From: a virus
Taxonomy: Duplodnaviria; Heunggongvirae; Uroviricota; Caudoviricetes
Reading direction: 5' to 3' (one strand)
Virus record (IMG/VR): IMGVR_UViG_2711768074_000021
Length of the DNA stretch: 13,501 nt
A program made the translations under genes and the position numbers. The notes under the pieces are model-generated. The model made no database searches and had not been told where the DNA came from. It saw nothing but the letters and a program-made list of their open reading frames with translations. This document shows, piece after piece, positions 7,438 through 13,501 of the stretch (within the stretch, counting starts at the first letter, position 1; each line of letters opens with the position of its first letter).

Positions 7438-7986
7438 ATGAAGACACTAAAAGCAACTCCAGAAACAACTAATTTTATCAACTGCGGCTGTGTTACGCTT
7501 AAGGGCTTAGAACTTGATTCCTTTGCATTAAATATTGCAAATTTGCTAAGTGCTGTACGCACATTCCATCTTCTGGATTGTGCTCGCTCAAAGGAACTGG
7601 GCATTGAGGTAATGGAATTTATCCATGAATATGCTCTATCTGCTGCTTCTCCTGCACAACAAAAACAATCCTTCCCTGAAAGCTGGCTGGTTAACCTTCG
7701 CACCCAACGCGAAGCCTGCGGCTTAACAACCGCCGAACTCGCCAGGCTGCTCGATCTCGATGAAGAAATTATCATCCAGTGGGAGAGCGGAGAGTATGAA
7801 CCAACTATCAGTATGCTTATCCCACTGGCAAATATTCTTGGCTGCGATCCGATGTGCCTGTTAACTGGTGAGGTTACTCCTCCGGAGCAACCAAAAAGTG
7901 AGGAGCAGCAACACCATGACGCATCTCAACAAGTTTGCCCCTTATCTCGCGAAGCTCTTCTGCGGAAGAACCAATACCAATGGTGA
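7438..7986 (+). CDS. Hypothetical protein with XRE-type HTH in its C-terminal half (about 183 aa)
   Basis: LTTAELARLLDLDEEIIIQWESGEYEPTISMLIPLANILGCDPMCLLTG is a clear HTH_XRE. The N-terminal 90 aa are unassigned. Start taken at ATG 7438. The 3' 113 nt overlap an antisense ORF (7874-8134), so the true end is uncertain. Confidence 0.55.
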   Translation: MKTLKATPETTNFINCGCVTLKGLELDSFALNIANLLSAVRTFHLLDCARSKELGIEVMEFIHEYALSAASPAQQKQSFPESWLVNLRTQREACGLTTAELARLLDLDEEIIIQWESGEYEPTISMLIPLANILGCDPMCLLTGEVTPPEQPKSEEQQHHDASQQVCPLSREALLRKNQYQW

Positions 7987-8114: not shown

Positions 8115-8480
8115 ATGAAAAAGTTCGAAAACATAACTGTTCTCCATGTTGATGACTTTGATTATACAAACCCGGAACTTCTCCCGGAGGTTGTAAAGGC
8201 AATGGATGTTGCCGATATAGTGATTAGAGAAAAGAGAATTGTCAAAAACAGGCTCGCATGCACTTCAGGAGCAATGACAGAAACAACCTCACAGCAAGAT
8301 AATTACGAAGGCATTTGTCTGGAGCCTGATTCATTTGCGGTAAATGTTTATCATTTATTGCATGCAACACAGGTATTACATATGTCCAGTAATCACGAAA
8401 CGAAAACACTCGGCAGCGAAATTCTGAGTTTTGCATGTGAGTATACAAAAGCTGCTGCCGAAAAAGAATTAGCGCAATAA
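8115..8480 (+). CDS. Hypothetical protein (121 aa), accessory cassette
   Basis: ORF with a GAGGAA Shine-Dalgarno 5 nt upstream of the ATG. AT-rich codon usage unlike the replication genes. No family recognised. Confidence 0.55.
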   Translation: MKKFENITVLHVDDFDYTNPELLPEVVKAMDVADIVIREKRIVKNRLACTSGAMTETTSQQDNYEGICLEPDSFAVNVYHLLHATQVLHMSSNHETKTLGSEILSFACEYTKAAAEKELAQ

Positions 8481-8558
8481 CAACAAATATGCCCTGAACG
8501 TTTATTGCGGTTTTATCGCCGGGGATTGTTACAACCTTAATCCACAGGAGGCTTTATT

Positions 8559-8672
8559 GTGACTTTTATAAAGAATATGGCATCACACAAGACCGCCTGC
8601 CTTATTGCACAATACGGTGAAAATTACATGCATATTGCCTGCTTATTTCTGCGTAAAGCATACGGGAGATAA
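8559..8672 (+). CDS. Candidate small ORF (37 aa, GTG start), possible leader peptide
   Basis: Perfect AGGAGG (8546-8551) 7 nt upstream of GTG 8559. Reads MTFIKNMASHKTACLIAQYGENYMHIACLFLRKAYGR. Its stop lies 2 nt before the next gene ATG. Below the ORF-track size cutoff. Confidence 0.3.
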   Translation: MTFIKNMASHKTACLIAQYGENYMHIACLFLRKAYGR

Positions 8673-8674
8673 TA

Positions 8675-8875
8675 ATGCATCAGAAAACAGCAGAACACGA
8701 ACAAACCAGAATATTGCTGACCATCAAAAACGGGAAAGTAATATTCATTCTCCATGTTCATGACGATGAACTTGTAGGAACTCTTTCAACATTCCTGTTT
8801 ATTGCAGAAAAGGCAGGATATGACGTTATTGCACCAGCAGATGAAGATGAAGATGAAGATGAAGATGAGGAATAA
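8675..8875 (+). CDS. Hypothetical small protein (66 aa) with poly-acidic C-terminal tail
   Basis: ORF ending ...APADEDEDEDEDEE. Followed 5 nt later by the next gene, so a two-gene unit. Confidence 0.5.
   Translation: MHQKTAEHEQTRILLTIKNGKVIFILHVHDDELVGTLSTFLFIAEKAGYDVIAPADEDEDEDEDEE
8840..8872 (+). repeat. In-frame hexanucleotide tandem repeat (GATGAA)x4 + GATGAG + GAA
   Basis: Read directly. Encodes the DEDEDEDEDEE tail and also carries the Shine-Dalgarno (GAGGAA 8867-8872) of the downstream gene. Confidence 0.9.
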
Positions 8876-8880
8876 ATATC

Positions 8881-9462
8881 ATGCAATACGATGAATTCCA
8901 GGCTGAAGCAACAGCCAATGGTATACGAACTGGCAGTATGACGATTGATTATCACGACGCCATACGTCGTCTGGATGCCGGAGAATTCGATACTCCTAAT
9001 GTGCGAGGTTTACGTATCCTTCAGTGTCTGGCGCAAGCCGACGAAGCAGGATTACTGGGTAAACTTCCGGTTGAGATGAAGGTTGCTCAGTGGCGATGGT
9101 TGTATGTGACGACATTCATCAACGAAGAAGAAGACAAGAACGGCACAATTGATATCCTGAATGAACACGGAACAACTGAACACGCCGTGGTATATAACGG
9201 GATGTATGGGTTTATGACGATATATCCCGGCCCCATTCGATTTGCCTTACAACAGTATATTGAATGGAATTTAATTCAAAAATACGGCGAAGCTGAAGGA
9301 ATGGGAAGAGCGCTGTTTCTTTATCAGAAAATGCTCACTACTTCCCCTGATAAAGGTTTCATTCTTTCAGATATGGGTCGAGAAGGGCTTGAAATCCTTC
9401 TGGATGAAATTATTAACGAAATGAATACTCATGGCATGCAATCCGAAACAGATATTAAGTAA
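8881..9462 (+). CDS. Hypothetical protein (193 aa), accessory cassette
   Basis: ORF with a GAGGAA Shine-Dalgarno 8 nt upstream. Tightly linked to the 66-aa gene. No family recognised. Confidence 0.6.
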   Translation: MQYDEFQAEATANGIRTGSMTIDYHDAIRRLDAGEFDTPNVRGLRILQCLAQADEAGLLGKLPVEMKVAQWRWLYVTTFINEEEDKNGTIDILNEHGTTEHAVVYNGMYGFMTIYPGPIRFALQQYIEWNLIQKYGEAEGMGRALFLYQKMLTTSPDKGFILSDMGREGLEILLDEIINEMNTHGMQSETDIK

Positions 9463-9472
9463 AAGGGACCAC

Positions 9473-9658
9473 ATGACCGTTATCGAGTATATCCAGGAAA
9501 ATCCAGATTGCAGTAGAGAAGATATATCCCTCGCACTTGGAAGAAGCGCAACTTCTATCAGTAATGAATTATCACGGTTATTGTGGAATGGGTTAATAGT
9601 ACGAACTGGAGAAAAAAACAAAATGATTCTGTACTGCGTAAACAATCTGCCGTTTTGA
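9473..9658 (+). CDS. Small winged-helix-like DNA-binding protein (about 61 aa); 3' end coincides with the IS terminus
   Basis: MTVIEYIQENPDCSREDISLALGRSATSISNELSRLLWNGLIVRTGEKNK has a wHTH-like pattern. Start taken at ATG 9473 (GGGA 4-5 nt upstream). The TGA stop (9656-9658) is the first three bases of the IS left end. Confidence 0.5.
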   Translation: MTVIEYIQENPDCSREDISLALGRSATSISNELSRLLWNGLIVRTGEKNKMILYCVNNLPF

Positions 9659-9727
9659 AGTGGCACACTGAATTTGGCCACCTGAACAGAGGTGATATGC
9701 TCACCTCAGAACAACACAGGTGCTCCA

Positions 9728-10417
<690 letters not shown>

Positions 10418-11073
10418 GTGTGCCCGGAGTTCAGGGCGGGCATGGATGCTTAAATGAACCGCGAGTCTGTCTGGAATATTGAACCGGTAACTCACGATGA
10501 GAAACCCAACAATCCCACCGGGTGTGACGGTGGAGAACCTGAGCGGCAGTGACCTGCGGCATGCCCGCAGGGTGATGTAACCCGCTGACAACGGGGATTG
10601 AGGCGAGATCACTAAGCCGAGATGATCCTCAAGGTTAAGTACTGAAAGGCTGAAGAACATGAACCCGTTAATCCGCCTCTGTGGGTTGAAAACGTCACCA
10701 CGGCCTACGTGATCTGACAGGCCGTGCAGGAGGAACTGGCAGTGATACGTAAGCACTGCCGGTCGAAGGTGTTTTGACATGTATGCGAAACACCGGGGCA
10801 GCAGCGTCTATCACGCTTGCGTTGCTGACTTCTGCCAACTTGCGGCAAGCAAGGATAAAGAGTGCGACGGGCAGCCTCCTCAGTATGCCTGAGTCCAGGC
10901 AGGTAAACCGGGGAAGGTCAGCGACGGATGTTAAGGGGGCATGGCTCCGATGACGCGCTGGCTGGCGGAGCTTCCGTAGTAGTCCGCGATGGGGAAAGCC
11001 CATTACATGGCGAAGGGAAGCAGTTTGAATGTGTTTGCGACGTGAATTAACTGACCTAACGAGGTGAAGACCT

Positions 11074-12597
11074 TTGATAATCAGCGAAATGCAACGCAAG
11101 CTTGCCACATGGGCAGTCACCGATCCGTCCCTACGGATTCAACGGCTGCTGCGTCTGATAACACAACCAGAATGGCTGGCTGAAGCGGCGCGGATCACGC
11201 TTTCATCAAAGGGGGCCCATACCCCCGGCGTTGATGGCGTGAACAAAACAATGCTACAGGCCAGACTGGCTGTTGAGCTGCAAATCCTCAGGGATGAATT
11301 ACTCTCAGGCCACTACCAGCCCTTGCCCGCCAGACGGGTTTACATCCCTAAAAGCAACGGCAAACTGCGACCACTGGGTATCCCCGCGTTGCGGGATCGT
11401 ATTGTTCAGCGGGCCATGCTGATGGCGATGGAGCCGATATGGGAGAGTGATTTTCATACGCTCTCATATGGCTTCCGGCCTGAGCGCAGTGTCCACCACG
11501 CGATCCGCACGGTGAAATTACAGCTCACAGACTGTGGTGAAACCCGGGGACGCTGGGTGATTGAAGGCGACCTGTCCAGTTACTTCGACACCGTACATCA
11601 TCGACTGCTGATGAAGGCTGTACGCCGCAGGATCAGTGACGCACGTTTCATGACTCTGCTGTGGAAAACCATCAAGGCGGGACATATCGATGTCGGTCTC
11701 TTTCGGGCGGCCAGTGAAGGTGTGCCACAGGGCGGTGTTATATCGCCGCTATTATCGAACATCATGCTGAATGAGTTCGATCAATACCTGCATGAGCGCT
11801 ACCTGAGCGGGAAAGCCAGAAAAGATCGGTGGTACTGGAATAACAGTATCCAACGGGGCCGAAGTACGGCGGTCAGAGAAAACTGGCAGTGGAAACCCGC
11901 GGTGGCGTACTGCCGCTATGCCGATGATTTTGTCCTCATCGTCAAAGGCACCAAAGCACAGGCGGAAGCCATCAGGGAGGAGTGTCGGGGTGTGCTCGAA
12001 GGCAGTCTGAAACTCAGGCTGAACATGGATAAGACTAAAATCACCCATGTTAATGACGGCTTTATCTTTCTGGGGCACAGGATCATTCGCAAACGCAGTC
12101 GTTATGGCGAGATGCGAGTGGTCTCAACGATCCCGCAGGAGAAAGCCAGAAACTTCGCCGCATCGCTGACAGCACTGTTATCAGGCAACTACAGTGAAAG
12201 CAAAGTCGATATGGCTGAACAACTCAACCGAAAACTGAAAGGCTGGGCCATGTTCTATCAGTTCGTTGATTTTAAGGCCAAAGTCTTCAGTTATATCGAC
12301 CGTGTCGTGTTCTGGAAGCTGGCTCACTGGCTGGCCCGCAAATACCGTACAGGTATCGCTTCCCTGATGAGGTGGTGGTGTAAATCACCGAAACCGGGTC
12401 AGAGCAAAACGTGGGTTTTATTTGGTAAAACCAATCACGGCAAGCTCAGCGGCGAAATACTGTACCGGTTGGTGGGGCAAGGCAAGAAGCTGTTCCGCTG
12501 GCGGCTACCCGAAGGTAATCCCTATCTGAGGACGGAGACCAGAAACACGTATACATCGCGCTTTACAGAAGTGGCAATGGCGTTCGCCAGCATTTAA
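11074..12597 (+). CDS. Group II intron-encoded reverse transcriptase/maturase, no recognisable endonuclease domain
   Basis: RT blocks present: RPLGIPALRDRIVQRA, SYGFRPERSVHHAI, EGDLSSYFDTVHH, GVPQGGVISPLLSNIMLNEFD, CRYADDFVLIV, plus maturase (X) region LNRKLKGWAMFYQF. No HNH or Cys-rich C-terminus. Start is TTG 11074 (GAGGTGA Shine-Dalgarno at 11061-11067) or ATG 11089. Confidence 0.9.
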   Translation: MIISEMQRKLATWAVTDPSLRIQRLLRLITQPEWLAEAARITLSSKGAHTPGVDGVNKTMLQARLAVELQILRDELLSGHYQPLPARRVYIPKSNGKLRPLGIPALRDRIVQRAMLMAMEPIWESDFHTLSYGFRPERSVHHAIRTVKLQLTDCGETRGRWVIEGDLSSYFDTVHHRLLMKAVRRRISDARFMTLLWKTIKAGHIDVGLFRAASEGVPQGGVISPLLSNIMLNEFDQYLHERYLSGKARKDRWYWNNSIQRGRSTAVRENWQWKPAVAYCRYADDFVLIVKGTKAQAEAIREECRGVLEGSLKLRLNMDKTKITHVNDGFIFLGHRIIRKRSRYGEMRVVSTIPQEKARNFAASLTALLSGNYSESKVDMAEQLNRKLKGWAMFYQFVDFKAKVFSYIDRVVFWKLAHWLARKYRTGIASLMRWWCKSPKPGQSKTWVLFGKTNHGKLSGEILYRLVGQGKKLFRWRLPEGNPYLRTETRNTYTSRFTEVAMAFASI

Positions 12598-12602
12598 ATG
12601 GA

Positions 12603-12636
12603 GAGCCGGATGCGCTGAAAGGTGCACGTCCGGTTC
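12603..12636 (+). ncRNA. Group II intron domain V (catalytic hairpin)
   Basis: GAGCCGGATGCGCTGAAAGGTGCACGTCCGGTTC fits the 34-nt domain V consensus: AGC triad at positions 2-4, GAAA-type loop, terminal GAGCCGG/CCGGTTC pairing. Confidence 0.8.
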
Positions 12637-12687
12637 GGGGAGGAGAGGCAGGGAAATAGTCCGACTACGCCCTGCCTCTTACTCTAC

Positions 12688-13160
12688 TCAGCACATGGCA
12701 GGGCTTCGTTTATGTGGCGTTCATCATTGATGTGTTCGCCGGATACATCGTGGGATGGCGGGTCTCATCGTCCATGGAAACGACATTCGTGCTGGATGCA
12801 CTGGAGCAGGCAGTATGGGACCGTCGTCCGTCTGGCACTATCCATCACTGTGATAAAGGTTCTCTGTATGTATCGCTGGCCTACACGCAGCGGCTTAAGG
12901 AAGCAGGATTACTGGCATCAACAGGGAGCACAGGCGACTCGTATGACAACGCGATGGCGGAGAGCATCAATGGTCTTTACAAAGCGGAGGTAATACACCG
13001 TAATAGCTGGAAAAACCGGACAGAAGTGGAACTGGCCACACTAACGTGGGTGGACTGGTATAACAATCGACGATTGCTGGGAAGGCTGGATCATATCCCT
13101 CCGGCAGAAGCAGAAAAAGCTTATTATGCTTCCATCAGAAACGATGATCTGGCAGCCTGA
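12688..13160 (+). CDS. IS3-family transposase OrfB, exon 2 (DDE catalytic core, C-terminal part)
   Basis: Translation (I)STWQGFVYVAFIIDVFAGYIVGW ... HHCDKGSLYVSLAYTQRLKEAGLLASTGSTGDSYDNAMAESINGLYKAEVIHR ... is an rve/DDE core. In frame with exon 1 after intron removal. Stop at 13158-13160. Confidence 0.8.
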
Positions 13161-13501
13161 GTTCACAAATAAAACAATCTCCAGGAAACCCGGGGCGGTT
13201 CAAATTTCGCAGAGGGCTGGCTTCTGATGCTGACGCTAACGTGCTTTTCCCACCTGCTAACCAGAAAGTAATCTGCCCAGCATAACAGTAACCCCATCAG
13301 CTTAAAATCAATAACGCCCTGTAAAACCTGAAGTAACAGTCCGGGAACTCGTATCATGCTAACATATCAGTGTTGTGAAGCAGTCGACAACGAGCTTCAG
13401 ACGTAAGCGTGCAGCAAGAACCGTATTGACGGGGATGTGTTATTCAGTCGGCAGTGCTACGCGCCAGGGGAGCAGTTCGCCGACCCGGTTTATCGGCCAG
13501 T

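Follow-up and report, generated by a model that had tools for sequence, protein, structure and literature searches.

The 66-amino acid (aa) open reading frame (ORF) at 8675..8875 (+ strand) of the IMG/VR virus record IMGVR_UViG_2711768074_000021, a 13,501-nucleotide (nt) stretch of Caudoviricetes DNA (hereafter, the window), probably encodes a trans-acting small antirepressor of the FsoA/GfoA/Rem type. Based on sequence and on analogy with characterised relatives, the gene would lie in the early-left operon of a lambdoid prophage, carry a slippage-prone acidic tail, and be followed by a gene for a separate 193-aa accessory protein. Antirepressors of the family phrog_340 are already known, and the addition made here is the 66-aa protein as a further member with a polymorphic tail.

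When compared with the PHROGs, the 66-aa protein matched phrog_340 (E 4.9e-22), the family that also takes FsoA (1.1e-26), the GfoA-like protein SEN34_55 (6.2e-21) and Rem of E. coli K-12 (4.4e-21); two "anti-repressor" PHROGs were also matched weakly, in their C-terminal parts. FsoA was identified using the published primers le154 and le162 (PMC3121763, Table S1), which match locus L009 exactly at 3408-3429 and 3602-3641, and is therefore the Fels-1 ORF STM0898.2n, which had already been recovered by tblastn with the 66-aa protein. BLASTP analysis gave short local matches to FsoA (43% identity over 37 aa) and to the GfoA-like protein (39% over 28 aa). A profile search recovered 474 relatives, nearly all of them Enterobacterales proteins of 60-85 aa. 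An NG turn, a DDE motif (D-D/N-E), a Phe and the motif AGY-x-(V/I)-x-PP recur in most family members, with the glycine of AGY as the only strictly invariant residue. The AlphaFold2 model predicts a beta-hairpin at residues 12-28 (strands 12-18 and 21-28) and a helix at residues 37-46, with a predicted local distance difference test score (pLDDT) of ~88-94 in the core, and both the size and the conserved core of the protein fit the small single-domain antirepressors (~60-85 aa).

Antirepressors bind the repressor, and in a gel shift purified GftA, which belongs to phrog_4847 and not phrog_340, dissociated GtgR from its operator (PMC3121763). The fsoA gene is located in the left operon of Fels-1 under the cleavable repressor FsoR, and its product acts in trans on Gifsy-2 (PMC3121763). 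Rem, encoded by the Qin prophage, relieves DicA repression with 165-fold derepression of dicBp, and the study that showed this tied Rem to GfoA and FsoA (PMC10448788), small antirepressors of Lemire et al. 2011 (PMC3121763). As the 66-aa protein belongs to the same family and its gene occupies the same position as fsoA, it is most likely a small antirepressor.

A Pfam scan gave no match for the 66-aa protein, nor for Rem, FsoA or the GfoA-like protein, and the entry PF27490 'Rem', to which one close family member (P0251) has a precomputed weak match, is seemingly absent from the copy used. The UniRef label "DUF905" on the cluster of one relative was not reproduced with Pfam. Profile searches against PDB sequences found no match for either the 66-aa or the 193-aa family, and a literature search by accession number returned no match.

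The GATGAA repeat and the acidic tail

The initial annotation of the window, made from its sequence alone, described the 66-aa ORF as ending in a GATGAA-encoded Asp/Glu tail, with the 193-aa ORF beginning 5 nt later. The sequence agrees with this, as does the RefSeq annotation of E. coli, where both ORFs have identical boundaries (WP_000553975.1 and WP_001199104.1). The protein terminates in ADEDEDEDEDEE (also written as IAPADEDEDEDEDEE and APADEDEDEDEDEE). Its DEDEDEDEDEE tail is encoded by (GATGAA)4-GATGAG-GAA at 8840..8872 (+ strand), which consists of four GATGAA units (8840-8863), one GATGAG (8864-8869) and a GAA (8870-8872) ahead of the TAA stop codon (8873-8875). With Tandem Repeats Finder, 8839-8868 was recovered as a perfect array of period 6 (score 60, 5.0 copies, 100% matches). 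The Shine-Dalgarno sequence of the 193-aa gene, which had been placed within the acidic codons, is indeed found there as GAGGA at 8866..8870 (+ strand), inside the last repeat unit and 10 nt upstream of the ATG at 8881. The GATGAGGA that bears it is present in all seven of the aligned E. coli-type sequences at any repeat number, and the distance from the Shine-Dalgarno sequence to the start of the 193-aa gene is constant whatever the number of repeats; the final GATGAGGA would be retained for its role as ribosome-binding site of the 193-aa gene. PhiP27 instead has AAGGAG and an ATGA stop/start overlap.

The repeat was also predicted to be a slipped-strand site at which tail length varies by isolate, and near-identical E. 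coli prophages were found to carry 1-8 GATGAA units. Aligned E. coli loci have 1, 2, 4, 5 or 8 units, and a 3-unit allele is indicated by match spans only. Of the 203 matching genomes, 60 were sampled at even spacing, and among these the unit count estimated by match span was 1 in 42, 2 in 11, 4 in 4, 5 in 2 and 8 in 1, and the small protein occurs in length variants of 60, 64, 66 and 68 aa. The repeat flanks, including the terminal GATGAGGAATAA, are identical in five of six aligned E. coli chromosomes, while in strain 155 two bases differ just downstream. The 4-, 5- and 8-unit alleles adjoin an identical 193-aa protein (WP_001199104.1) and the repeat changes are therefore recent; all are in frame because the unit is 6 nt. 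The array would grow and shrink in frame through replication slippage. When assessed as a contingency locus (phase variation), the site was found to vary in copy number among close isolates, but there is no on/off switch, as neither a frameshift nor a change in spacing results. The small gene is under purifying selection, with a ratio of non-synonymous to synonymous substitution rates (dN/dS) of 0.22 relative to phiP27. In some E. coli genomes (L015:701-882; proteins P0056, P0059 and P0060) there are small antirepressor alleles with a 1-nt frameshift, one of which is a RefSeq frameshifted pseudogene.

The ADEDEE end and its expansions are confined to the E. coli subgroup related to the window. 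Elsewhere in the family the proteins end in PPAKEQTL (phiP27 L07 and ASU11 gp52), FEEISNVG (FsoA), PPDA (vB_EcoM-705R4) or APNTEKQ, and Klebsiella phages and phi467 have a ...S(D/N)T(N/H)S tail. Net charge is -13 for the 66-aa protein (-11 in the tail and -2 in the core) and ranges from +1 to -8 in homologues. With a pLDDT of 56-74 in the AlphaFold2 model, the tail is probably disordered. Addition of a C-terminal 3xFLAG leaves the function of FsoA and GftA unimpaired (PMC3121763). Given the tail diversity of the family, this tolerance of 3xFLAG and the charge data, the acidic repeat can be regarded as a lineage-specific, tolerated extension; it is probably tolerated rather than required, and it may modulate potency. 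The acidic tail is therefore not a family feature: phiP27 L07 and ASU11 gp52 are homologues without it, an outcome that the initial annotation had itself named as counting against its reading. The S(D/N)T(N/H)S tail recurs at L016:2467-2874, L005:2964-3218 and L006:3924-4133, and Aeromonas phage AsXd-1, in which the small gene is missing, has it on its phrog_1737 protein; judged from these sequences, the shared motif suggests either a gene-fusing deletion or a portable tail motif.

The strongly acidic composition had been taken to suggest a DNA mimic. In such a protein, or in an anti-restriction-type inhibitor, the poly-Asp/Glu tail would occupy the site with which a host or defence protein binds DNA. 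Such a role is compatible with the net charge, most of it in the tail, with location in an early operon, a frequent site of counter-defence genes in phages, and with a tail length that differs between isolates, which could reflect an arms race. However, the charge is limited to the low-confidence, probably disordered tail and the core has almost none, homologues at ~50% identity (phiP27, ASU11) are entirely without the tail, ~70% of E. coli alleles have one GATGAA unit only, and the same family contains characterised antirepressors. Known DNA mimics (Ocr/ArdA type) present their charge on a folded scaffold, which also counts against this explanation, and we regard it as very unlikely. What can be kept of it, in a loose sense, is that the 66-aa protein probably binds a DNA-binding protein, namely a repressor, as its family does.

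The 193-aa protein and its relationship to the 66-aa protein

The 193-aa acidic protein (8881..9462, + strand; net charge -14), the ATG of which lies 5 nt after the 66-aa stop codon, matches phrog_1515 (E 3e-90). Close homologues were found in Escherichia only. A profile search of 1.84 billion representatives yielded 101 clusters at 50% identity; the named members are from Enterobacterales, with further members in the phage collection from records of Aeromonas and Elizabethkingia phages. The source names of distant homologues are all "hypothetical protein", bar one "Phage protein", and the name "2-polyprenylphenol hydrolase" on Klebsiella homologues was unsupported by any profile. The AlphaFold2 model of the protein (pLDDT 86.5) had no convincing fold match in PDB or BFVD. 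Most family members have a near-invariant C-terminal His (...P-x-x-P-x-x-H), while the window protein ends in ...MQSETDIK and the Stx (Shiga toxin)-phage alleles in ...MPEGQ; from this alignment, the window lineage appears to have replaced the C-terminus.

Residues ~71-183 of the 193-aa protein align to the whole of phrog_1737, a family of ~120 aa (hhalign probability 72%, E 3.5e-5), and a phrog_1737 gene is located immediately 5' of an fsoA-like gene in Fels-1, phi467, Klebsiella phages, CharmingMan, EKP1 and the related locus L019. As this domain is shared with proteins that precede fsoA-like genes, it can be speculated that the 193-aa protein may act in the same antirepressor regulatory neighbourhood. 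The gene upstream of 193-aa homologues encodes a small antirepressor in E. coli, phiP27 and ASU11, a ParE_like 74-aa protein in locus L003, a 135-140-aa phrog_1886 protein in AsXd-1, CharmingMan and EKP1, and a serine protease in Klebsiella phages. The fullest order is that of CharmingMan (phrog_1737, phrog_340, phrog_1525, phrog_1886, phrog_1515 and an ORF6N/Rha-type protein), and the window resembles a reduced form of this arrangement. Among the loci examined, the small protein is found without a 193-aa homologue in Fels-1 (around fsoA) and vB_EcoM-705R4. Due to the varying upstream gene and the occurrence of the small protein alone, the pairing of the 66-aa and 193-aa genes can be considered lineage-specific, and they are translationally linked here only because the intervening genes of other phages are absent.

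The initial annotation treated the two genes as a two-gene unit, with the small protein as an antitoxin-like partner. A functional pair of the toxin-antitoxin or inhibitor-effector kind, in which the small acidic protein neutralises or regulates the 193-aa protein, would suit the 5-nt gap, the Shine-Dalgarno sequence inside the upstream gene and the ATGA overlap of phiP27. It would also suit the presence of both families in one operon in most phage records that have the 193-aa family, the repeated adjacency of fsoA-like genes to a protein with a phrog_1737/phrog_1515 domain, and the ParE_like gene that overlaps the start of the 193-aa homologue in one distant locus. However, searches of the 66-aa and 193-aa proteins and their distant homologues against Pfam, PADLOC and NCBIfam returned nothing significant, and thus no toxin, antitoxin or defence-system domain in either protein. 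What lies immediately upstream of a 193-aa family gene varies from phage to phage, and in the Fels-1 and 705R4 loci the small protein has no such partner. In addition, PBAD-fsoA is active by itself (PMC3121763), and a consensus scan found no dedicated promoter for the two genes, which are inside a longer co-directional string. A functional pair is consequently unlikely, and neither the two-gene unit nor the antitoxin-like role was retained; the 193-aa protein is a separate, uncharacterised early accessory prophage protein.

The early-left operon

The window matches ~200 complete E. coli chromosomes and many Stx1- and Stx2-converting phages, including prophages integrated at yecE, and its sequence identifies it as the early-left arm of a lambdoid E. 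coli prophage. In intact relatives, xis and int are located further along the same strand, and the operon is therefore assigned as an early-left, pL-type operon. Ahead of it lies the gene for a CI-like repressor with helix-turn-helix (HTH) and Peptidase_S24 domains (LexA family; 6596..7291, + strand), the RefSeq orthologue of which is named 'LexA family protein'; locus L019 has HTH_3 and Peptidase_S24 domains at the corresponding position. An intrinsic terminator (7303-7319, + strand) after the repressor gene is followed by a pL-like promoter, TTGACA-17-TAATAT (7356-7384, + strand), identified by promoter scan with 10/12 matches. A palindrome search found operator-like ATCAA-N7-TTGAT sequences on either side of this promoter (7344-7360 and 7391-7407, + strand), and half-sites related to them are found at three positions between cI and cro (6477, 6507 and 6556).

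The first gene downstream (7408-7986, + strand) encodes an HTH protein in which residues 97-160 form a DicA-like HTH with 35% identity to DicA, making it a candidate same-operon target of the antirepressor. Between it and the 37-aa ORF described below is a 121-aa ORF (8115-8480, + strand), which was considered as a relative of phrog_1737, and comparison showed no relationship. A domain of ~50 aa is common to the HTH protein and the 121-aa ORF, and phrog_5451 and phrog_4587 match both. A consensus scan revealed no promoter-like site on the + strand between 8304 and 8675, which is weak evidence, and a LexA-box search gave chance-level matches only, none of them near the 66-aa gene.

The 66-aa and 193-aa genes belong to a tightly packed gene string with stop-to-start gaps of 2-10 nt. 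The initial annotation overlooked the first gene in this string, a conserved 37-aa ORF with a GTG start (8559..8672, + strand) that has an AGGAGG Shine-Dalgarno sequence at 8548-8553 and a stop codon 2 nt ahead of the 66-aa start; the downstream winged-helix gene is also part of the string. The 37-aa ORF is listed in locus L001 and annotated in the Stx1 phage LC567819; the RefSeq annotation of E. coli chromosomes omits it. Its protein sequence is conserved in phiP27, ASU11 and Stx phages. There are 17 synonymous vs 12 non-synonymous differences, and dN/dS relative to phiP27 is ~0.06, a value that is approximate as dS is saturated.

The fourth gene in the string (9473..9658, + strand) encodes a winged-helix (MarR-like) protein according to Pfam and PHROG matches. 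Its 3' end has been removed by IS911, which begins at ~9655-9656 and supplies the stop codon with its first bases, leaving a protein of 61 aa here vs 82-96 aa for the intact, longer ORF in L001. The IS911 copy (9656-13501 region) is itself split by a group II intron, with a reverse-transcriptase ORF at 11074-12597 and an Rfam Intron_gpII match at 12601-12687. On the - strand, Rfam matches above the gathering score were obtained for C4 antisense RNA (5123-5210) and isrK (5232-5308), both inside the 5' portion of an ORF of the Rha/Ant type listed at 4517-5365. The region 5123-5308 resembles the P1-type c4/ant control module, and the phage may therefore have a second, RNA-controlled antirepressor. 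A perfect 21-nt tandem duplication (2721-2762) is present inside the DnaC-like (ATP-binding) replication gene (- strand ORF 1910-2818) and repeats the 7-aa sequence RAEMDEL.

Predicted mode of action and comparison with known systems

As a small antirepressor, the 66-aa protein would be expected to act as follows. The gene would be silent in the lysogen, and would be transcribed from the pL-like promoter at 7356-7384 when the cleavable CI-like repressor has been inactivated. The protein would then bind a repressor of the DicA/GtgR type, most probably one encoded by another resident prophage, causing the repressor to leave its operators. Induction of co-resident prophages would thereby be coupled, as it is by FsoA for Gifsy-2.

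Several points weigh against an antirepressor of this kind. Identity to the characterised members over whole alignments is just 20-31%; antirepressor specificity is narrow, as YpjJ, YeeT and YkfH are inactive on DicA (PMC10448788); and in the work of Lemire et al. no contribution of FsoA to the induction of Fels-1 itself was seen (PMC3121763). In addition, the control of the pL-like promoter by the CI-like repressor is putative, based on consensus scans and palindromes, and the close linkage between the 66-aa gene and the 193-aa gene in E. coli, phiP27 and ASU11 might be functional. The narrow specificity, with several PSI-BLAST-predicted relatives inactive on DicA (PMC10448788), and the absence of a detectable FsoA role for its own phage (PMC3121763) would also be expected if the 66-aa and 193-aa genes were unrelated accessory genes, the repeat neutral microsatellite noise, and the likeness to antirepressors distant and without shared activity; the same is true of a tail that is variable and dispensable in the family. 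We consider this quite unlikely given that the small gene is under purifying selection relative to phiP27, that conservation of the core motifs is strong throughout the Enterobacterales, and that each of three phrog_340 members tested separately acts as an antirepressor.

Within the antirepressor reading, an unlikely but conceivable extension is that the repeat array serves as a tuning knob, with a longer poly-Asp/Glu tail competing with operator DNA for the repressor surface so that alleles of 1-8 units would differ in co-prophage triggering, and, separately, that the phrog_1737/phrog_1515-domain proteins are partners that modulate or redirect the antirepressor. The natural alleles provided by tail-length polymorphism might help in dissecting antirepressor potency. 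Orthologues of the 66-aa gene in ~200 complete E. coli genomes and many Stx-converting phages are labelled just "hypothetical protein". If the assignment is correct, they encode a trans-acting kind of antirepressor that synchronises the induction of several prophages per cell, which would be relevant to the induction of Shiga-toxin phages and to prophage competition in polylysogens (ST131, enterohaemorrhagic E. coli).

The direct orthologues of the whole string (37-aa, small and 193-aa genes) are phiP27 L07/L06 and early-left ORFs of Stx phages, all of which are annotated as hypothetical only; phiP27 L07 differs in its tail, PPAKEQTL instead of an acidic one, and in its ATGA overlap with L06. 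Rem of the E. coli K-12 Qin prophage (Ragunathan et al. 2023, PMC10448788) is likewise a small prophage protein of phrog_340 and lifts the repression exerted by a short, non-cleavable HTH repressor, but it is 83 aa long, ~20% identical and without an acidic tail, and its gene is in the nin/Q region beside hokD rather than in the left operon. The GfoA-like protein is also a phrog_340 member, with the C-terminal sequence ...LGYRVTPPSD compared with ...AGYDVIAPADE in the window protein, whereas GfoA, GfhA and GftA of the Gifsy prophages are encoded by stand-alone, LexA-controlled genes beside dinI, a control for which the 66-aa gene has no nearby box. FsoA of Fels-1 (PMC3121763) resembles the 66-aa protein in its phrog_340 membership, in its NG, DDE, F and AG motifs, in its beta-hairpin and helix, and in its early-left operon location downstream of a cleavable S24-type CI-like repressor. 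At 78 aa vs 66 aa the two are of similar size, but FsoA has a longer N-terminus and ends in FEEISNVG with no Asp/Glu repeat. The fsoA gene lies between a phrog_1737 gene (upstream) and a phrog_1886 gene (downstream), whereas here a gene of the 193-aa family follows. The target of FsoA is GtgR of Gifsy-2, and that of the 66-aa protein would be a repressor of the DicA/GtgR type.

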